Below the pieces are notes generated by a model. The model was not told the DNA's origin. It worked only from the letters and a program-made list of their open reading frames with translations, and ran no database searches. Shown here one piece after another: positions 4,013 to 13,412 of a DNA stretch of 64,000 nt. This DNA comes from a phage. Where the stretch lies: sequence record PV805633.1; one strand, 5' to 3'. The stretch's first letter is position 1. Every line of letters starts with the position of its first letter. The position numbers and the translations under genes were made by a program.

Positions 4013-4389
4013 AAACTATCCCATTAGGTGATAACACCAATGCTTTGATGGGTGTATCCGCACGTCCAATTATCATTGTTAATAAACATCACGGTAAATC
4101 CGGTGAGTATATTGGACGTGGCTCACCGTTAGGCAATCCATTCGTCATTGGTAAACATGGAACCAGAGAGCAAGTAATTGCTAAGTATAAAGTCTGGCTA
4201 CAAGAACAGATTGATAAAGGTAATCCAGTTGTACTGGATGAACTTAATCGTCTTGGTAATAAAGCCATAGATGAAAAAGGATTAGCCTTACAGTGCTTCT
4301 GTTATCCAAAACCATGTCATGGTGCGGTTATTAAAGAGAAGCTAGTAAAGGCTATGTATAACTACTTTGTAGAAAATTCAAAAGGATAA
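4009..4389 (+). CDS. DUF4326-like protein
   Basis: EYIGRGSPLGNPF motif recalled from the DUF4326 family. Confidence 0.5.
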   Translation: MKTIPLGDNTNALMGVSARPIIIVNKHHGKSGEYIGRGSPLGNPFVIGKHGTREQVIAKYKVWLQEQIDKGNPVVLDELNRLGNKAIDEKGLALQCFCYPKPCHGAVIKEKLVKAMYNYFVENSKG

Positions 4390-4392
4390 TTC

Positions 4393-4743
4393 ATGAAAGA
4401 AATCTTAGTATTCACTACCAATGTACTTGGGCAGCATACCAATGCTGCTGCCAAGTTAGCTTATAAGAAGCACGGTGCACGTTGGGGCATGGCCTACGGT
4501 CATTATGGTAATAGCTTTGCCATCCCAGTAAGGGATGGCAATGGTAACCGAATTAAAGAGGGTGCTATCTATGGCTTCGTTGAAGGCTTTATTTCCTATG
4601 CATCTACTAATCCACAGTGGGATTTCAAAGTAATGGGAGATGACTATCTGGACCCATACCTGTTCAATAATGTTACTGGCAATGTACTGTTACCAGAAGC
4701 ATGGCGTAAATACTTAGGTGATGCTTACAACTACTGGTCATAA
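4393..4743 (+). CDS. hypothetical protein
   Basis: ORF track. Confidence 0.5.
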   Translation: MKEILVFTTNVLGQHTNAAAKLAYKKHGARWGMAYGHYGNSFAIPVRDGNGNRIKEGAIYGFVEGFISYASTNPQWDFKVMGDDYLDPYLFNNVTGNVLLPEAWRKYLGDAYNYWS

Positions 4744-4747
4744 GAAG

Positions 4748-4760
4748 GGTGCTCCGCACC
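4748..4760 (+). promoter_or_regulatory. N4-type virion-RNAP early promoter hairpin (GGTGC-TCC-GCACC)
   Basis: Same architecture as 88 and 767, followed by TTGTGGT; 32 nt upstream of the RNAP II small-subunit gene. Confidence 0.5.
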
Positions 4761-4791
4761 TTGTGGTAATTAAATAATTGGAGAATATGCG

Positions 4792-5610
4792 ATGTACTCA
4801 TCTATCGAACATCAGAAGCAGCTTGAAGTCCTATTCAATAAAAATCAATTACTGCCTCGCATGAGGAAGGAATTCGAGGACTCCAAAGAAATTGACTTTA
4901 AGGCATTCGCTGCCTATTTGGAAATTGATTATAAGCTGCTCATTGATGCAATGGTACAAATTGCCCTACATAAACGTGCTGACATCCAGACTATGATTGG
5001 CTCTCTCATGAGTCACTCAGATGATGCTCAGTACATCGCTGACTGTCTGTATAAGATGGCAGAGAATGACTGCTTCAACTATGACCCTACCATCGACAAG
5101 TTCGGTGTTATCTATGAGATTAGTGAAGATGTTCAGATGGAACTGGAAGCATTCCAGTATCCATTACCTATCGTAAGTGCTCCTAATCCTGTCAGAACTA
5201 ACAGGGATACTGGTTATTACCAGACTAAAGGAAGCATCATCCTCAAGAAGAACCATCATGAGATGGATGTCTGCCTTGACCACATCAACCGTATGAACAA
5301 TCAACGTCTCTGTATTAACTGGGACGTTGCTAACTATGTAAAAGACTCTCGTCCTAACATGGATAAACCCAAAGAGGGTGAAACCCGTCAGGAATATGAG
5401 AAACGTGTTAAAGCCTTTGAGAAGTACAGTCGTACAGCTAAGGAAGTAATGGAGTTAGTGACCCAAGAAGGTAATAACTTCTCACTAGGCCACAAATACG
5501 ACAAACGTGGGCGTACCTACGCTCAGGGCTATCACATTAACTATCAGGGAACCAGCTACAACAAAGCTGTTCTGGAGTTCGCTGATAAGGAGCTGGTAAA
5601 CGATGATTAA
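4792..5610 (+). CDS. phage RNA polymerase II small subunit (N-terminal part of a T7-like single-subunit RNAP; N4 gp15-like)
   Basis: KYDKRGRTYAQGYHINYQG resembles the T7 RNAP DWRGRVYAV...NPQG region; size 272 aa and position match N4 gp15. Confidence 0.65.
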   Translation: MYSSIEHQKQLEVLFNKNQLLPRMRKEFEDSKEIDFKAFAAYLEIDYKLLIDAMVQIALHKRADIQTMIGSLMSHSDDAQYIADCLYKMAENDCFNYDPTIDKFGVIYEISEDVQMELEAFQYPLPIVSAPNPVRTNRDTGYYQTKGSIILKKNHHEMDVCLDHINRMNNQRLCINWDVANYVKDSRPNMDKPKEGETRQEYEKRVKAFEKYSRTAKEVMELVTQEGNNFSLGHKYDKRGRTYAQGYHINYQGTSYNKAVLEFADKELVNDD

Positions 5611-5736: not shown

Positions 5737-6185
5737 GTGGCTCAAGACGCTAAGGAATATAAAATGCAACTGTTAACCGCCCGTGAATACCTGAAAGTAG
5801 ATATCGCTAACAACTATGGCTTAGACAAAAAGACATGGGATGAGCGTATTAGCTGGTTCGATGAGAACGAAGCTAACCTGCTCAATCTGGTAGATGAAGC
5901 TGAAGAATCTGCACTGTTCTACGCAGGTGTAAACGCTTGGAAAGATATGAAAGCTGGTAAGCCTATCGGTTATGCCGTAGCTCTGGATGCTACATCATCT
6001 GGCTTGCAGTTACTGGCTTGCTTGACTGGTGATCGTTCTGCTGCTGAATTGTGTAATGTAGTTAACTACATGGGCGAGAATGGTAAGCCATTACGACGTG
6101 ATGCTTATACAGTTATCTATCACAAGATGCTGGACATCCTTGGTGAATCATCCCGTATTAAACGTAGTGATACTAAGCAGGCCGT
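5737..6185 (+). CDS. phage RNA polymerase II large subunit, exon 1 (motif A)
   Basis: LDATSSGLQLLACLTGD matches T7 RNAP motif A; frame ends 2 codons into the insertion; RIKRSDTKQAV is the first half of motif B. Confidence 0.7.
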
Positions 6186-6991
6186 TAACCTATAAGTCAT
6201 GGCGGCCTTTAAACCGGGTGAACTCATGGAACATCCCTAGTGGACAATCATGAGCCAAGTTGGTAACGTAGAAAGCTCAATAAGGAGCATTCTATGTCAG
6301 AATTCAAAACGTGCAGTCGATGTAAAGAATTACTTCCTATCGAAGTATTCCCAGAGACTAAAAAAGCAATCACAGGACTCAAGACTAATTACGAGAATCG
6401 TTGCAGACCTTGCAAGGCTGCTGCTGCTCGTGAATGGCGTAAAAATAATCCCGGTTACACTGGAACTGGGATTCTTAAGGCAATACCGGAAGAGCATCGT
6501 AATGGTATTCAGCAGTCTCACTTAGACTGAGAGATGCAAAGAGCAGATGTAAAAAGCTCGGTAAGCCTATGCCTGATTGCACAGTAGAGTACTTATTTGA
6601 AATCCTTAAATCACAGGAATTCAAATGTGCTTTAACTGGTGCAACCTTAGTAATTGAGTCGGGACATCCCTTGTGTCTATCATTAGACCAGATAGAGCCA
6701 AGCAAGGGATATAGTATTGATAATGTTCAATGGTTAGCTTGGTGTGTAAACCGAGCAAAGGGTGACCTTTCTACCAATGACTTTATTGATATGTGTGATG
6801 CTGTTTTGAATAACCAAAAGGTGCAGAGACTATCGAAAAGCAGCGTAAGCTGAACTTAGTAGAGTAGGCCCAAGTGGGTCGAAGCGCCCGGCTAGACTAA
6901 TAGTCTAGATGATATAGTCCGAACTCACTGGTAACAGTGAGATGCAGGTAAAGCTGCTGGGGAAGATTAACGACCTTCCTTGAACATAATG
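6186..6991 (+). mobile_element. putative group I intron carrying an HNH homing endonuclease
   Basis: Splits motif B; exon 1 ends in T, intron ends in G; GCGGCC guide sequence about 16 nt in pairs with the exon end GGCCGT with U-G at the splice site; P7-like AGACTA/TAGTCC and S-like GATGATATAGTCCG; internal ORF has its own AAGGAG SD. Confidence 0.6.
6294..6853 (+). CDS. HNH-family homing endonuclease, disrupted by a 1-nt frame change near 6500-6510
   Basis: N-terminal CSRCK...CRPCK zinc ribbon (ORF 6294..6530); C-terminal LRLRDAKSRCKKLGKP...CALTG...SLDQIEP..GYSIDNVQW..CVNRAKG in another frame (open from 6503, ORF 6569..6853). Confidence 0.55.
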
Positions 6992-7787
6992 TATGACTGC
7001 ATTCTATGGTTCAGAAGCCAAGCCTAAAGAAGTATTCGGTGAAGGTATTCGTCTCAAGACTTTTGAGAATGTAATGGAAACAGTTGCTAGTGGACCTTGG
7101 GCACTGAACAAGTTCTTACTGCAATGTGGTGACCCGGATGCTAACCGTTACGTATGGATACTGCCTGACAACTTCCATGCTGTCATTAAGGTCATGGTTC
7201 CAGAAGTACAGACTGTTAACTTCTTAGGTAAGCCATTCGACATCACTCGTATGGTTCAGGGTACTGAAGATAAGACTCGTATGCTCTCTGCTAACATCAC
7301 CCACTCTATTGATGGAATGGTGGTACGTGAGATGCTACGTCGTTGTAACTTCAACATGAACCAAGTGAACTATGTTAAGCCCCTCTGTGAAGGAACCAGT
7401 GAGTATATGCTGGGTACTAGCGAGAACTACGACATGGTTAGTCAACTGTGGCATAACTATGAGAAATCAGGATTCCTGTCTACCCGTATCTTTGATTATC
7501 TGGATTCTGACTCAATTAAACTGGTTGATACAGATGTAATCATGGCTATGCTTAATACCATGCCTAAGAAACCATTCCCTGTAATGACCGTACATGACTG
7601 CTTCCGTTGCCACCCTAACTACGGTAATGACTTGCGTCGTCAGTACAATCAGATTCTGTCTGACATTGCTAAGAGTGATCTACTGGGCTTCATCCTGTCT
7701 CAGGTACTGAGACAAGAGTTCTCTGCTGGTAAGCTGGATGACAGCCTCTGGCAGGACATCCTTGAAACGGATTATGCATTAAGTTAA
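6992..7787 (+). CDS. phage RNA polymerase II large subunit, exon 2 (motifs B and C)
   Basis: MTAFYGSEAKPK matches T7 MTLAYGSKEFG; VHDCF matches T7 motif C IHDSFG; exon 1 + exon 2 = about 414 aa, close to N4 gp16. Confidence 0.7.
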
Positions 7788-7794
7788 TAAACTG

Positions 7795-7829
7795 GCCTCA
7801 TACCTTCGGGTATGGGGCTTTTATTTTTT
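7795..7829 (+). terminator. rho-independent terminator
   Basis: GCCTCATACC-TTCG-GGTATGGGGC followed by TTTTATTTTTT. Confidence 0.7.
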
Positions 7830-7831
7830 GC

Positions 7832-8029
7832 TTGGAGGTAGTCAACATGACAGACATCTATGATGTTATTACTAAAACTGTACTGATAGTTTTATCTGCT
7901 ATTGTGGTATTCACTATAGCCAATGTTCATAAATCCAAGTTTTCCTATTGCTACTATGGGGCATATTCTGCCGGATGTTTTGTATTAGCCGGTTGGATAG
8001 CTTACTGGATTTACCACATCAACAACTAG
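7832..8029 (+). CDS. small membrane protein (65 aa)
   Basis: ORF track; two hydrophobic segments. Confidence 0.5.
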   Translation: MEVVNMTDIYDVITKTVLIVLSAIVVFTIANVHKSKFSYCYYGAYSAGCFVLAGWIAYWIYHINN

Positions 8030-8056
8030 CCACCCTCATGGGTGGCTTTCTTTTTA
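8030..8056 (+). terminator. rho-independent terminator
   Basis: GCCACCC-TCAT-GGGTGGC followed by TTTCTTTTT. Confidence 0.65.
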
Positions 8057-8102
8057 TCAGCCTTCATAATGATTAGGCATATTTACCTAAGAGGATACAT
8101 AC

Positions 8103-8924
8103 ATGCCAACCCTAAAGATTGCGTTTAATAAAACAACCAACGTTGCTATCGTGCTTGATTCAGATGGTAGTGTTCCAGATGGTTTTGCGGAAGTAGGTAC
8201 TTTTGTACATCCTGATGCCACTTACCCTGATAGCTTAGTTATCTATCACGGTGTACGTGACCTGTTGTATAAACGTTCTGCTGAAGACCCTGCTGAAGAA
8301 GGTTTCTGGCCTAACAACATCGTGGATATGCAGTCGATCACTATTACCCCACAACTGTCTATTGCTACCGAACTGCCTAATGAAGTCTCTGCCATCGAAG
8401 GTGAAGATATTAACTGGCATATTGATGTAGCAGGTGGTAAAGCACCTTTTACCTATAAGTGGCAATACAAAGCAGGTACTGATGGTGCAGTATTCACTGA
8501 TATTGATTCTAGTGATAACGAATCTGCTGCTACTGCAACATTGACCCTTAATGGCGTAACCACTGCTTCTGCTGGTACTTATAAAGTGATTGTTACTGAT
8601 GCTAATGGAACCACGGTGGAAGATACCTCACTGCTGACTGTAAGCTACCCCGAAGCAAGTTCACTGGTAGCTACCCCTGATTCACTGGAACTGTCTGTTG
8701 CTGACGATGCCACTGATGGTAAGACTGTAACCATTACTGCTATGCCTGTTGGAGCGTCTGTTGGTACTTTATCTATCAAGACTGCTCCAGATTCTGCCCG
8801 TGCTACAGCTACCATTTCTGATAACGTACTGACAGTTAAACCTGTGGCAGAAGGTGAAGCTACTTCTGTAGTAGTTACCAACGGTACTGTCGATGTAACC
8901 ATCGCTATTACTGTTGCAGCATAA
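8103..8924 (+). CDS. Ig-like domain protein (I-set-like plus Big_2-like)
   Basis: GGKAPFTYKWQYK...AGTYKVIVTDANG pattern, then TVKPVAEGEATSVVVTNGTVDVTI. Confidence 0.55.
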   Translation: MPTLKIAFNKTTNVAIVLDSDGSVPDGFAEVGTFVHPDATYPDSLVIYHGVRDLLYKRSAEDPAEEGFWPNNIVDMQSITITPQLSIATELPNEVSAIEGEDINWHIDVAGGKAPFTYKWQYKAGTDGAVFTDIDSSDNESAATATLTLNGVTTASAGTYKVIVTDANGTTVEDTSLLTVSYPEASSLVATPDSLELSVADDATDGKTVTITAMPVGASVGTLSIKTAPDSARATATISDNVLTVKPVAEGEATSVVVTNGTVDVTIAITVAA

Positions 8925-8973: not shown

Positions 8974-9010
8974 GACCTCCCTATTGAAGGGAGGTCTTTT
9001 TTTTTTTTTG
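8974..9010 (+). terminator. rho-independent terminator
   Basis: GACCTCCC-loop-GGGAGGTC followed by a T run of more than 10. Confidence 0.75.
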
Positions 9011-9034
9011 ACTTAAACAAACCGGAGCCAGGAA

Positions 9035-9223
9035 ATGTATAAAGAGATTGCATTCTTCTCGTTCTTGTTAGGTGGGTTAATTGGTGCAGGATTTGTAGCC
9101 ATTTCTAATAACTACTTTGGTTCTACTCCAAATTCTGTAACACAAACCCTCAAGCATGAATGTGAATTGAATATCCCTCGTAACCAAAACTGCGTAATGC
9201 AGTTCGTACCGGAGAAGAAATGA
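9035..9223 (+). CDS. small membrane protein
   Basis: ORF track; hydrophobic N-terminus. Confidence 0.45.
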   Translation: MYKEIAFFSFLLGGLIGAGFVAISNNYFGSTPNSVTQTLKHECELNIPRNQNCVMQFVPEKK

Positions 9224-9480
9224 ATATTCATAATCTACGTTTGGTTGAAAGACTGTATGAAGAATACAACGACAACCGACAGCAATTAGCTAGTATAAAA
9301 AAGTCCCCACATATGGTGAAAGTAACCTTCTGTGATACAGATTTGGGGGTACAAGCACGTACAAGCATAATCCCTAAATTGGTAGCATTTTATCAGAAGA
9401 AAGTGGATGACTTAGAGAAACGCCTAAAGCATTTAGGAGTTGACCTATCTTTATTACCTGAAGAAGAGGAAGAAGAGTGA
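9220..9480 (+). CDS. hypothetical protein
   Basis: ORF track; start/stop coupling. Confidence 0.5.
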   Translation: MNIHNLRLVERLYEEYNDNRQQLASIKKSPHMVKVTFCDTDLGVQARTSIIPKLVAFYQKKVDDLEKRLKHLGVDLSLLPEEEEEE

Positions 9481-9662
9481 AACTAACCCAGTCCCAAGCA
9501 ATTTTCCTTCGCATGATTCAAGGTGGTTCTGCCACCAGCAACCGTAATAACAAAACCGCACAGTCTCTTAAGAAGCTGGGCTTAGTACAGTTCAATGCTG
9601 GTCTTGGGTGGTCATTAACCCCTACCGGCGTACTTCAACTCAACGAATTAAAAGGTAACTAA
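9477..9662 (+). CDS. hypothetical protein
   Basis: ORF track. Confidence 0.45.
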   Translation: MKLTQSQAIFLRMIQGGSATSNRNNKTAQSLKKLGLVQFNAGLGWSLTPTGVLQLNELKGN

Positions 9663-9989
9663 ATGAAAACTTTAATTGCTGTTGTTCTAGTAGCTCTATC
9701 AGTTCTGTCATTCGGTGCTCAGGCATCCAGTCGTGCAACCTTGTTGGAATCTGCTGCTGATTACAAAGCCAATAATGCAAACTTTGTGAACCAGGGTTAC
9801 TTCATGGGCATGGTTACTATGGGTGTGGAAGCAGGAAAGAATTGTGTACCTGACGGTATAAAATTAGGGCACATTTTTGACAGAGTGGCCTCTATTATTC
9901 TGTATGACCGAAAGGTTAATGCAGTAAAAGTACCATCAGACATGGTTCTGTTAGCGATTAATACAGCCTATCCCTGCGTTAAATCTTAA
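9663..9989 (+). CDS. secreted/periplasmic small protein with signal peptide
   Basis: MKTLIAVVLVALSVLSFGAQA/SS signal-peptide pattern; two Cys. Confidence 0.5.
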   Translation: MKTLIAVVLVALSVLSFGAQASSRATLLESAADYKANNANFVNQGYFMGMVTMGVEAGKNCVPDGIKLGHIFDRVASIILYDRKVNAVKVPSDMVLLAINTAYPCVKS

Positions 9990-10023
9990 TTAGTAATTCC
10001 ATTAACTTTAGGAGAGTAAGTAA

Positions 10024-11076
10024 ATGGCGAACATTGACTCCTTGACTGTATGTAATACACGGCAAGCCCGTAACTTTATTATCCGTGCCTTGCAAGCAGG
10101 TAACGTACCGTTCCTGACTTCATCACCGGGTATGGGTAAGTCTGCAATTATTCATTCTATTGCAGAAGAATTTGGTATGAAGCTGATTGACCATCGTTTG
10201 TCTACTTCTGCCCCAGAAGACTTATCTGGTCTACCATTCCGTAATGGTGACCGTGCAGAATTTATTCCTTTCGCTGATTTATTCCCTATCGAGGGTGACG
10301 AAGTACCGAAAGGTTATAATGGCTGGCTCCTGTTCCTTGATGAGTTCAACTCAGCTAAAAAGGAAGTAGTAGCTGCTGCATACAAACTGATTCTAGACCG
10401 TATGACCGGACAGAAAAAACTTCACCCTAATGTGATGATTATCTGTGCCGGTAACAAAGCTACTGACCGAGCCATAGTTAACCCACTGGGTACTGCAATG
10501 CAGTCCCGTGTTGTCCACTTCGAAATGGAACTCGACTTCGACATCTTTGTTGAAGACGTTATGATTCCACAAGAATGGGATGAGCGTCTGGTTGCATTCT
10601 TACATGCTAACCCTGGTTATCTGCATGACTTCGACCCTGCCCACAAGAACAAAACATTCTGTTGCCCACGTACCTGGGACTTTGTTAACAAAGACCTCAA
10701 GAACCGACCAGAAGGTGCTTTGCCTGATGAAGATTCTATCTACTATGCAGGCCACGTCACTGCTGGTAAAGCTACAGAGTTTGTTCAGTTCACTCAGGTA
10801 TACAATCGTATGATTACGATTGAGAAGGTAGTCAAAGACCCTTTGGGATGTGCACTACCGGAAGATAATAACCTGTGCTGGGCTACTGTTAACCATCTGG
10901 CTAACAAAACTACTGAAGATAACTTCGCTGATGTTCTTCAGTACATTGAACGCTTTAAAACGTTCACCCATAAGATTCTGTACTTCCGTACAGTAGGCAA
11001 AGCATTACCAGAAATTCAGGCTACCCCTGAATGGCGTAAAGCTGCTGCCAATATCTCTCGTTACATTCACGGATAA
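10024..11076 (+). CDS. MoxR-like AAA+ ATPase
   Basis: Walker A SPGMGKS; Walker B/MoxR motif LFLDEFNSA...AAAYKLILDR. Confidence 0.7.
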   Translation: MANIDSLTVCNTRQARNFIIRALQAGNVPFLTSSPGMGKSAIIHSIAEEFGMKLIDHRLSTSAPEDLSGLPFRNGDRAEFIPFADLFPIEGDEVPKGYNGWLLFLDEFNSAKKEVVAAAYKLILDRMTGQKKLHPNVMIICAGNKATDRAIVNPLGTAMQSRVVHFEMELDFDIFVEDVMIPQEWDERLVAFLHANPGYLHDFDPAHKNKTFCCPRTWDFVNKDLKNRPEGALPDEDSIYYAGHVTAGKATEFVQFTQVYNRMITIEKVVKDPLGCALPEDNNLCWATVNHLANKTTEDNFADVLQYIERFKTFTHKILYFRTVGKALPEIQATPEWRKAAANISRYIHG

Positions 11077-11083
11077 TCACAAC

Positions 11084-12259
11084 ATGAACCAGATACCTCA
11101 GCACACACTTAGTGATGAACAACTCATGCGTGAGTATGACCGTATTCAGGCCCAAGCCTTCCTAGGCAAGTCTGCTGCGTTTTTTGGTTCATTGCTGTGT
11201 AGTCTTAAGTTCTCATGGAAACGTGAGGGTTGTCCCACTGCATGTACCGATGGGATAGAACTCCATTTCAACCCTGACTTCTTTATCTGGATGTGCCCTG
11301 ATGCAAGAGAAACAGTGCTAATGCACGAACTCTGGCATGTGGCATATCTGCATGGCATCCGTTGTGGAAGCCGTGACCCGGAAGTCTGGAACCAGGCATG
11401 TGACCACTTCATTAACCTTCAGTTAGAGGAAGATGGTTACAAGTTCACTGGTATCGACGAAGGTATTTGCAAAGACCCTCAATATAAAGGATGGGTCGAA
11501 GAAGACATCTACGATGACCTGATGAAGAACCCTCAGAAAAGGCAGAAGCCGTCGGGGGGAGCTGGAGCAAGTCTTGCTGGCGACATGAAAGCCCCCTCTT
11601 CGGGGCAGTCCCAGGGTGCTGTTGTCAACAACGTAGTGCGTGCAATGCAAAGCCAGAAGATGGCTGGTGGAACAATGCCCGGTAAAGGTGCTGGTCGTAT
11701 GGAAGAGGTTATTACCCAATTCCTTAAACCAGTAGTTCCATGGCAGGAAGTTCTGATGAACTTCTTTACCGACATTGATGACACACATTATACGTGGGCC
11801 AGACCTAACCGTCGCTTCACTGACGTCTATCTACCTTCTCTGGAAGATGATGAAGGACGCTTACGACACTTAGCCTACTTTGAGGATGTATCCGGTTCTA
11901 TTAGTAGTGCTGACTCTCTGCGTTTTAACTCAGAGGTTGCCTACGTTAAGAGCCAGTTCAATCCTAAGAAGATGACCCTAATTACCTTCGACGATATTAT
12001 CCAAGAAGAAATAGACATCACTGAAGAAGATACTTTTGAAGAGATTAAGATTACTGGTCGTGGTGGTACAAACCTTGAACCAGTGCGCGAATGGATTATT
12101 AAGAATAAACCAACCGCTGCAATCATATTCTCCGATATGTATGTTCGTCCAATGGAAGAATTACCATTTGATATCCCTATCATCTGGTGTGTTCTGAATA
12201 ATCCTAATGCTACCGTACCTTTCGGGGAGGTAGTTCATATCCCTAAAGGAATGAAATAA
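11084..12259 (+). CDS. VWA-like / putative metallopeptidase partner of the MoxR ATPase
   Basis: HELWHVAYLH (HExxH) in the N-terminal half; immediately downstream of the MoxR-like gene. Confidence 0.45.
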   Translation: MNQIPQHTLSDEQLMREYDRIQAQAFLGKSAAFFGSLLCSLKFSWKREGCPTACTDGIELHFNPDFFIWMCPDARETVLMHELWHVAYLHGIRCGSRDPEVWNQACDHFINLQLEEDGYKFTGIDEGICKDPQYKGWVEEDIYDDLMKNPQKRQKPSGGAGASLAGDMKAPSSGQSQGAVVNNVVRAMQSQKMAGGTMPGKGAGRMEEVITQFLKPVVPWQEVLMNFFTDIDDTHYTWARPNRRFTDVYLPSLEDDEGRLRHLAYFEDVSGSISSADSLRFNSEVAYVKSQFNPKKMTLITFDDIIQEEIDITEEDTFEEIKITGRGGTNLEPVREWIIKNKPTAAIIFSDMYVRPMEELPFDIPIIWCVLNNPNATVPFGEVVHIPKGMK

Positions 12260-12765
12260 TGATTGTTAATGGTAATTCTCTATACCGTTCATCTCAATTG
12301 CTGGATGTCCCAGACCGTAAAGTATCCGAGCATGGTGTAAGCTATGGATTAGGTGAAGCTGGTTATGATATTCGTATCAAACAAGACATTACCTTCTATC
12401 GCTTATTTGGATTGATTCCAATGGTGAAAATCGCTGATGGAAAACAAGTATCACGCCACTTCGGTAAGTTTGCATTGGCTTCAGCAATTGAGAAATTCAA
12501 CATGTCCCCGTCCTGTGTAGCTATCGTTCACGATAAGTCCACATGGGCAAGACGTGCATTATCTGTGTTCAATACCGTAATAGAACCAGGATGGAAAGGG
12601 TATCTTACCCTCGAACTGGTCTATCATGGTCGTAAGAAACTGCATATCCCGGCTGGTGCTGGGATAGCTCAAGTATTATTTCATCTGGTTCAAGAGCCTG
12701 CTAACTACAATGGCAAGTATCAGAACCAGGAAAACAAACCAGTTGCTGCAAGAAGCAGCAAATAA
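12259..12765 (+). CDS. dCTP deaminase-like (dUTPase fold)
   Basis: GYDIRIKQD and GWKGYLTLELV...GAGIAQVLF motifs. Confidence 0.55.
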   Translation: MIVNGNSLYRSSQLLDVPDRKVSEHGVSYGLGEAGYDIRIKQDITFYRLFGLIPMVKIADGKQVSRHFGKFALASAIEKFNMSPSCVAIVHDKSTWARRALSVFNTVIEPGWKGYLTLELVYHGRKKLHIPAGAGIAQVLFHLVQEPANYNGKYQNQENKPVAARSSK

Positions 12766-12774
12766 GGAAACAAC

Positions 12775-12975
12775 ATGTCAGTATTTCAAGTATCTCCTGT
12801 TGACAGTACCCAACGTAAAACTATTGTTGCAACTAACGTAGTAGATGTAGATGAAACCCCGACTGGTGCTGTAATTCATCTGATTGATGGACGAACTGTA
12901 ACTGTAAAAGAAAGCTATCGTTCAGTACGTGGATATGTTCGTAAAGCTTTGACTGCTGACTCTGACGCAGAGTAA
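12775..12975 (+). CDS. hypothetical protein
   Basis: ORF track. Confidence 0.45.
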   Translation: MSVFQVSPVDSTQRKTIVATNVVDVDETPTGAVIHLIDGRTVTVKESYRSVRGYVRKALTADSDAE

Positions 12976-12987
12976 GTAGCTGCCTAA

Positions 12988-13015
12988 ATAGCCCAACTAT
13001 GTTGGGCTATTTGTG
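12988..13015 (+). terminator. terminator-like hairpin
   Basis: AGCCCAAC-TAT-GTTGGGCT followed by ATTTGTG. Confidence 0.45.
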
Positions 13016-13383: not shown

Positions 13384-13412
13384 AAGCCCACCTAACCCGT
13401 GGGCTTTTTTAA
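13384..13412 (+). terminator. rho-independent terminator
   Basis: AAGCCCAC-loop-GTGGGCTT followed by TTTTTT. Confidence 0.65.

Follow-up and report, generated by a model that had tools for sequence, protein, structure and literature searches.

In the 64,000-nucleotide stretch of phage DNA analysed here (record PV805633.1, whole stretch hereafter 'the window'), two consecutive genes, orthologues of gp24 and gp25 of phages N4 and G7C, encode an AAA+ ATPase of the AAA_5 (dynein/midasin/MoxR) class and a protein in which a putative zincin-type metallopeptidase domain precedes a VWA-like domain. We consider it probable that the two products constitute an ATP-driven, two-component machine that remodels proteins, one of the MoxR/midasin-VWA type supplemented with a protease. 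This reading builds on domain identities, motif conservation, co-inheritance and operon structure, each of which was observed directly. A first-pass annotation, made from the letters of the sequence without database searches, had placed two open reading frames (ORFs) within 10024-12259 and described them as a MoxR-like ATPase paired with a VWA/HExxH protein. Both ORFs were recovered on the + strand at these positions, and the pairing itself recurs in 68 of 80 bacterial loci as well as in plasmid, jumbo-phage, PA5oct-like and rV5-like loci. The coordinates of all features are collected in Table 1.

Against Pfam, gp25 matched DUF2201_N (8e-55; 186.8 bits against a cut-off of 23.2) over residues 17-253 and the VWA-like family DUF2201 (1.8e-34) over residues 263-386. 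[quoted passage not shown] The residues expected to be functional are retained over large distances. In 38 N4-like sequences H81, E82, H85 and the full MIDAS set are invariant, and in a wider set of 85 homologues at 25-30% identity H81 is kept in 84, E82 in 79, H85 in 84, H90 in 82 and D107 in 84, with the MIDAS set retained in 79-84. The AlphaFold2 (AF2) model of gp25 (predicted local distance difference test score, pLDDT, of 78) consists of two domains with a poorly modelled linker between them; the HExxH motif sits on a predicted helix (residues 72-87), and H90 or D107 could be the third zinc ligand. Bacterial members of the family gave sub-threshold matches to SprT-like (1.7e-4), M48 and M78 peptidases around the HExxH motif, and sequence searches of gp25 against solved structures returned nothing significant. 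The linker just before the VWA domain scores below 50 pLDDT in the monomer model despite its conservation (W238, R243, R244, Y249 and P251 are invariant in phages and strongly conserved in the 85 homologues), and it is possibly a contact with the ATPase.

The 350-aa gp24 carries the hallmarks of the AAA+ superfamily, namely Walker A, Walker B, a polar sensor-1 residue and a candidate arginine finger. In Walker A, G38, K39 and S40 are invariant in 36 phage sequences, and K39 is present in 67 of 67 non-truncated homologues; in Walker B, D106 is invariant and position 107 is glutamate in 51 homologues and aspartate in 19; N144 and R162 each occur in 72 of 72 aligned homologues and align with the NP...RF of midasin modules. 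The segments SPGMGKS (residues 34-40) and LFLDEFNSA (residues 103-111), which the first-pass annotation had taken for canonical MoxR motifs, are present, but they are generic P-loop/AAA+ Walker A and B motifs and not specific to MoxR. The more class-specific element is a conserved P64-x-D66-L-x-G69-x-P71 motif, of which P64, D66 and G69 are invariant and P71 nearly so over phage and bacterial members; it is carried by the 41-residue region between strand 2 and Walker B, which aligns with the equivalent region of midasin AAA modules. We presume this region to be the helix-2 insert of the AAA+ core, the defining feature of the AAA_5/MoxR clade (PMC7159879). The C-terminal helical domain (~180 aa) exceeds the usual AAA+ lid; it contains an invariant R216 and a conserved R310, and no Pfam model, the lid models included, matched it.

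Placing gp24 within the AAA+ proteins depended on the sequences with which it was compared. Both proteins belong to large families: PHROG 1297 matches gp24 at 2e-134 and PHROG 1314 matches gp25 at 1e-144, agreement well out of reach of chance, and the homologues found in databases exceed 1700 for the first and 970 for the second. NCBIfam offered no usable match for either. On its own, gp24 gave a generic PF00004 match in Pfam (28 bits) and a single match in the PDB, to a midasin AAA module (8.5e-5); single-sequence and phage-only profiles likewise gave weak midasin and PspF matches among solved structures. The class was resolved because bacterial relatives were added to the phage members in the decisive profile (alignment A3), which matched midasin at 1.3e-31, NorQ at 3.5e-6, CHU_0153 at 6e-4 and CbbQ at 8e-4. 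Of 32 family members, 28 match AAA_5 and 16 match AAA_3 (E of 1e-3 or better), and the bacterial gp24-type ATPases exceed the AAA_5 cut-off. Family profile and fold are both nearest to known members of AAA_5, or of the 'MoxR clade' in its broad sense, and gp24 is, as judged from sequence, a divergent single-module member of the dynein-midasin/MoxR class that lies closest to midasin modules. The 'MoxR-like' of the first-pass annotation is therefore apt at the level of the clade, but not in the sense of MoxR proper (AAA_3, with the MRP, RavA and related subfamilies), where gp24 should not be filed since it matches neither AAA_3 nor any Pfam lid model. The ternary MoxR-vWA conflict or defence systems (with VMAP, iSTAND, FtsH or beta-propeller components) were considered and rejected, bpMoxR remaining below its cut-off; PADLOC assigned no defence system: its one match, DolB at 14.7 bits, fell on gp24, and neither gp25 nor the plasmid cassette described below gave any.

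The partnership of the two genes extends well beyond N4-like phages. A scan of one genome per prokaryotic species returned at least 572 relatives of gp25, and at 68 of the 80 best bacterial loci a gp24-type ATPase gene lies just upstream on the same strand, the exceptions being mostly contigs that end on the ATPase side. By tblastn the gp25 family was found in 92 plasmids, 30 of them predicted to be conjugative, and in 680 phage records that cover all N4-like genera, several jumbo phages, and PA5oct-like and rV5-like phages; the ATPase is also present in each phage group examined. A whole-library search gave 21,444 family representatives at 50% identity, mostly of 360-420 aa. The arrangement varies: the ATPase gene adjoins the gp25-type gene in Yersinia jumbo phage fHe-Yen9-04, lies ~3 kb upstream of it in Callisto, and in an rV5-like phage occupies the other strand, the annotation there being 'MoxR ATPase' already. 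At 36 of the bacterial loci an ORF intervenes between the two genes, and 33 of these 36 ORFs form one homologous family of predicted helical proteins (~300 aa; for example 4033-4977 in locus L052), for which Pfam gave nothing other than a weak, sub-threshold DUF3150 match; the same protein is encoded at 8058-8984 of L082. A hidden Markov model search with E values up to 10 found this third gene neither in the window nor at the other phage loci; the phage form is thus a minimal two-gene version of a cassette that includes a third, helical protein in many bacterial mobile elements. Neighbours of the bacterial cassette are genes characteristic of mobile elements and encode PRTRC proteins (ThiF, PRTRC_E), VirB4- and VirB11-type ATPases, RNase H and Sipho_Gp157, and in the conjugative plasmid pBMC401 the cassette lies between the PRTRC system and the type IV secretion system (T4SS)/relaxase operon. 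Judged by this distribution, the pairing is an old one and a property of mobile elements. Across phages and plasmids, strong purifying selection acts on all catalytic residues of the ATPase, of the MIDAS and of the HExxH motif.

Two database records met in this survey are probably misfiled. The Acinetobacter baumannii 'plasmid' pRBH2-3 (NZ_CP110465.1; 75,126 bp), filed as non-mobilizable, contains an N4-like set of genes, for a phage-type RNA polymerase, a gp24-type ATPase, an HNH protein and a gp25-type protein; its length is that expected of an N4-like genome, and it probably represents a phage and not a plasmid. JANQNF010000027.1 (69 kb), deposited under 'archaeon isolate PL23a_bin.95', encodes homologues of both proteins, with a gp25 79% identical to that of the window; almost certainly this is a contig of an N4-like enterobacterial phage that was wrongly binned with an archaeal metagenome-assembled genome.

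The window itself derives from a G7C-like coliphage (Gamaleyavirus, Schitoviridae, N4-like): its region 9000-13000 is 96.6% identical to vB_EcoP_G7C and is matched by 59 related phage records. The gene order is that of N4 and G7C, with the pair in the same slot between a decoration-protein gene and the dCTP deaminase gene; in RefSeq the G7C products are named 'ATPase' and 'VWA-like domain-containing protein'. A spacer of 7 nt (11077-11083) separates gp24 from gp25, and both lie in one transcription unit, each end of which is marked by a strong intrinsic terminator, the upstream one corresponding to an annotated stem_loop in G7C. The start codon of the dCTP deaminase gene overlaps the stop codon of gp25 (TAATG), which suggests that these two genes are co-translated. 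The genes adjoining gp24 and gp25 encode enzymes of nucleotide metabolism, and the large + strand genes of the window up to ~31.5 kb all belong to the early/middle cluster, whereas the - strand encodes the structural proteins along with the giant virion RNA polymerase. An Rfam scan of the gp24-gp25 region gave no match. Between the homologues of G7C gp17.1 and gp17.2 the window also holds an 86-aa ORF (9220-9480, +) that is without a counterpart in the G7C annotation and is present in phage U1G.

Table 1. Features of the gp24-gp25 transcription unit, numbered from the first nucleotide of the window
Feature	Position	Strand	Basis
Intrinsic terminator, upstream boundary of the transcription unit	8974..8996	+	9-bp stem, 6 GC pairs, then T10
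gp24 homologue, 350-aa AAA+ ATPase, AAA_5 (dynein/midasin/MoxR) class	10024..11076	+	ORF
gp24 Walker A, S34-P-G-M-G-K-S40	10123..10143	+	Conservation
gp24 strand 2-to-Walker B region, residues 59-99, presumed helix-2 insert	10198..10320	+	Conservation, alignment
gp24 Walker B, L103-F-L-D106-E107-F-N-S-A111	10330..10356	+	Conservation
gp24 sensor-1 Asn144 (10453-10455) to candidate arginine finger Arg162 (10507-10509)	10453..10509	+	Conservation
gp24 C-terminal all-alpha domain, residues 172-350	10537..11073	+	AF2 secondary structure, conservation
gp25 homologue, 391-aa protein, putative zincin plus VWA-like domain	11084..12259	+	ORF; Pfam DUF2201_N, DUF2201
gp25 DUF2201_N putative metallopeptidase domain, residues 17-253	11132..11842	+	Pfam
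gp25 HExxH; H90; C106-D107	11324-11338; 11351-11353; 11399-11404	+	Conservation
gp25 conserved linker, W238-A-R-P-N-R-R-...-Y249-L-P-S252, just before the VWA domain	11795..11839	+	Conservation
gp25 minimal VWA-like domain, residues 263-386	11870..12241	+	
gp25 complete MIDAS: D268-x-S270-x-S272; T329; D351	11885-11899; 12068-12070; 12134-12136	+	
dCTP deaminase (gp26), context	12259..12765	+	Sequence, annotation
Intrinsic terminator, downstream boundary of the transcription unit	13384..13406	+	8-bp stem, then T-run

It is from the strong purifying selection on the catalytic, MIDAS and HExxH residues that we infer an ATP-driven ring with an adaptor that grips and cleaves; the complex, its stoichiometry, the proteolysis and the target all belong to this inference, for which better known couples serve as the model. 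Akin to NorQ/NorD, CbbQ/CbbO and midasin, gp24 would form a hexameric ring, on which one gp25 would dock, possibly through the W-x-R-P-N-R-R...Y-L-P linker. In characterised couples one VWA protein binds per MoxR hexamer, via the pore and the side of the ring; the MIDAS is dispensable for binding the ATPase and essential for engaging carboxylates of the target, and the force of ATP hydrolysis passes through the VWA adaptor (PMC9976466, PMC13036017). The metal at the MIDAS of gp25 would accordingly be expected to grip an acidic residue or a peptide of the target protein, which ATP hydrolysis by gp24 would pull or twist and which the zincin domain would cleave. The machine would be active in the cytoplasm in the middle (replication) phase, its target being one that large mobile elements share. 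For a cytoplasmic role shared by such elements, and against a purely structural one, speak the middle-phase expression of the pair, its coupling to nucleotide-metabolism genes, the chiefly replication functions of the middle genes of N4-like phages, whose late structural genes are on the other strand (PMC9163698), and the homologues in plasmids and ICE-like elements, which make no virions. A target in host takeover or establishment, or one that is linked to replication or associated with DNA, is plausible when the two are taken together, albeit short of probable, and ranks above a target in virion assembly.

Several known systems share parts of this architecture. The N4 pair (Schitoviridae) is directly orthologous, without substantive difference from that of the window; the annotation of its members as AAA ATPase and vWFA protein dates back to 2009 or earlier (PMC2784036), and both are N4 middle transcripts and count among the 14 core genes of N4-like phages and among the five of these without known function (PMC4193335). 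The second protein was called a metallopeptidase by the authors of the KP8 study (PMC6950046). Iyer et al. (2021) reported from jumbo phages of group 2.2 a MoxR AAA+ ATPase whose vWA co-chaperone bears a metallopeptidase domain at its N-terminus (PMC7824862), that is, the same architecture of AAA_5/MoxR-class ATPase and zincin-vWA protein, and we found jumbo-phage homologues of both window proteins; the parts of that paper drawn on here do not discuss N4-like phages or the plasmid and integrative and conjugative element (ICE) relatives. NorQ/NorD and CbbQ/CbbO also combine a single-module AAA_5-class ATPase with a VWA partner that has a complete MIDAS, and NorQ and CbbQ match gp24 in both sequence and fold, as the NorD VWA domain matches gp25. 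In contrast to NorD and CbbO, gp25 has a putative N-terminal zincin domain, a much smaller VWA domain (~125 aa) and no evident pore 'finger', and gp24 differs from NorQ and CbbQ by its large extra C-terminal helical domain; the targets differ too, NOR and Rubisco having no bearing on the present pair. The gp24 family has its best sequence match in midasin (Rea1/Mdn1), which likewise couples AAA_5 modules to a substrate-binding MIDAS/VWA domain, but it is a giant eukaryotic polypeptide with six fused AAA modules, the MIDAS in cis and no peptidase domain. An AAA+ unfoldase is joined to a SprT/WLM-type HExxH protease in Cdc48/p97 with Wss1 or SPRTN, an analogy limited by the different AAA+ clade of Cdc48/p97, its lack of a VWA adaptor and the lack of evidence that gp25 acts on DNA-protein adducts. 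Finally, p618 (MoxR) and p892 (VWA) of Acidianus two-tailed virus form a viral chaperone pair that resembles gp24/gp25 as far as the descriptions given of it go (PMC7824862, PMC7159879); they come from an archaeal virus, lack a peptidase domain and act in extracellular tail development.

Several observations weigh against a remodelling machine with an added protease. As to the ATPase, (i) gp24 alone remains under the Pfam cut-offs for AAA_5 (16.6 against 22 bits) and bpMoxR (12.6 against 27); (ii) Pfam reported no AAA_3 match for the window protein; and (iii) the helix-2 insert region is modelled by AF2 with low confidence (pLDDT 47-69, below 50 at residues 64-73, with one short strand at 77-79). 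As to gp25, its N-terminal domain matched no solved zincin, so that its putative protease nature is read from the Pfam family and the motif, and its VWA domain is minimal, without a NorD-type beta-hairpin 'finger' in the predicted secondary structure. Some phages keep the two genes several kilobases apart or on opposite strands, and the jumbo-phage pair adjoins Hsp70 and virion structural genes. Conservation as core genes is unusual for counter-defence genes. Literature searches turned up no functional study of any family member, be it of the complex, ATPase activity, proteolysis or substrate.

The proximity to virion genes bears on the foremost alternative, which we judge unlikely, namely that the pair is a chaperone-protease of virion morphogenesis that folds, assembles and proteolytically processes structural proteins. 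Iyer et al. proposed such a role in virion assembly and processing for the pair of the group 2.2 phages, which has this architecture, by analogy with p618/p892 (PMC7824862), and in fHe-Yen9-04 the pair lies directly downstream of the Hsp70 gene and of genes for three virion structural proteins. It would also suit a core gene pair of all N4-like phages, some of which have a second structural module, expressed in mid-phase, near gp24 and gp25 (PMC4193335). The window pair, however, is located in the middle replication module on the + strand, far from the late structural genes of the - strand, and is co-transcribed and, as it appears, translationally coupled with dCTP deaminase; neither protein is among the listed virion proteins of N4-like phages (PMC4193335). 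Close homologues of both proteins, moreover, are encoded together as a cassette of conjugative plasmids and of ICE-like elements, neither of which make virions.

Metal insertion is the role of most characterised MoxR-VWA couples (PMC13036017, PMC9976466, PMC7159879), and gp24/gp25 might by the same token be an insertase or maturation factor for a metal cofactor, like NorQ/NorD, CoxD/CoxE, CobS/CobT or BchI/BchD; the pair would open up a target enzyme so that the metal can be inserted, and the HExxH site of gp25 would serve to bind or deliver the metal. Although the VWA domains of NorD and BchD are among the structural matches of gp25 and the neighbouring genes encode nucleotide-metabolism enzymes, we regard this as improbable. 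No CobS, CobT or chelatase model of Pfam or NCBIfam matched, on which ground a Co/Mg chelatase of the CobS/CobT or BchI/BchD type was rejected; the catalytic glutamate of HExxH is present in 79 of 85 homologues, as expected for hydrolysis and not for mere metal binding; and no metalloenzyme partner is conserved over the phage and plasmid contexts.

Less probable again is that the adjacency is mere synteny of independent proteins, with gp24 serving as a replication ATPase (clamp-loader-like or a loader of helicase) and gp25 as a peptidase in its own right or an adhesion-type VWA protein. The two genes are co-inherited over very large distances, at the bacterial loci counted above and in four unrelated phage groups, and no sliding-clamp gene was noticed beside the pair at any examined locus. 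A clamp loader of the RFC/gp44 type was rejected as a candidate for gp24, given that in sequence as in fold it is matched best by the AAA_5 class with VWA partners and not by RFC. That gp25 is an HNH homing endonuclease, as PHROG 1314 and, through it, many GenBank and RefSeq records have it, can practically be discarded, since DUF2201_N and DUF2201 explain its full length, its C-terminal half is a VWA fold, and neither Pfam nor NCBIfam gave an HNH match.

The HNH label probably arose from true HNH genes, which are often inserted beside or inside gp24 and gp25, as in G7C and U1G. In G7C (NC_015933.1) a free-standing HNH homing endonuclease gene, gp24.1 (7821-8297), separates gp24 from gp25, and it is absent from the window. 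In the close relative U1G (NC_070872.1, 1522-3456) 882 bp break gp24 precisely between codons 105 and 106, immediately ahead of the Walker B aspartate; they hold an HNH ORF that bears the annotation 'Phage intron', and they weakly match group I introns (23.7 bits, E 0.0066). The interruption is an apparent homing intron, and such a position, at the very codon of Walker B, is typical of genes whose function has to be preserved. U1G gp25 is annotated as two ORFs owing to a frameshift around residues 148-158 that may be either genuine or an error of sequencing. The gp24-gp25 junction and both genes seem to be hot spots for the insertion of homing endonucleases. Elsewhere in the window, the gene for the large subunit of RNA polymerase II (gp16, RNAP2), which is intact in G7C (405 aa), appears split on the + strand into an N-terminal ORF, 5737-6195 (152 aa, DATSSGLQ), and a C-terminal one, 6993-7787 (264 aa, HDCF). 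The halves are ~0.8 kb apart; in the gap lie two small ORFs, at 6294-6530 and at 6569-6853, and, at 6602-6941, a match to a group I intron that stays under its cut-off (30.2 bits, the cut-off being 50; E 1.1e-4). The split is probably due to a homing intron in an essential gene.

With its domain architecture and pairing already published and annotated, gp24/gp25 is a known kind of system and not a discovery. What the present analysis adds is modest: it links the pair to PRTRC/T4SS-associated cassettes of plasmids and ICE-like elements, shows the affinity of the ATPase to midasin, identifies the phage version with its two genes as minimal, and recognises the label 'HNH endonuclease' for gp25 as wrong, the practical use of which is the correction of a widespread misannotation. 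A more far-reaching version of the remodelling machine, tentative and to our minds rather doubtful, is that the module is a substrate-cleaving machine of the MoxR/midasin type, used by lytic phages, conjugative plasmids and ICEs alike to remove a specific host or DNA-bound protein with which any large mobile element has to cope on entry. If this were true, it would be the first MoxR-VWA couple with proteolysis as its output, and candidate targets would be a host defence factor, a nucleoid or replication factor, or a protein bound to DNA tightly or by a covalent link; the removal of such a protein would explain both why the pair is among the few genes universal to N4-like phages and why it is sited beside PRTRC and T4SS genes on plasmids. 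Identification of the substrate of gp24/gp25 would assign a function to a universal module of the Schitoviridae and would show whether MoxR-VWA machines couple to proteolysis.

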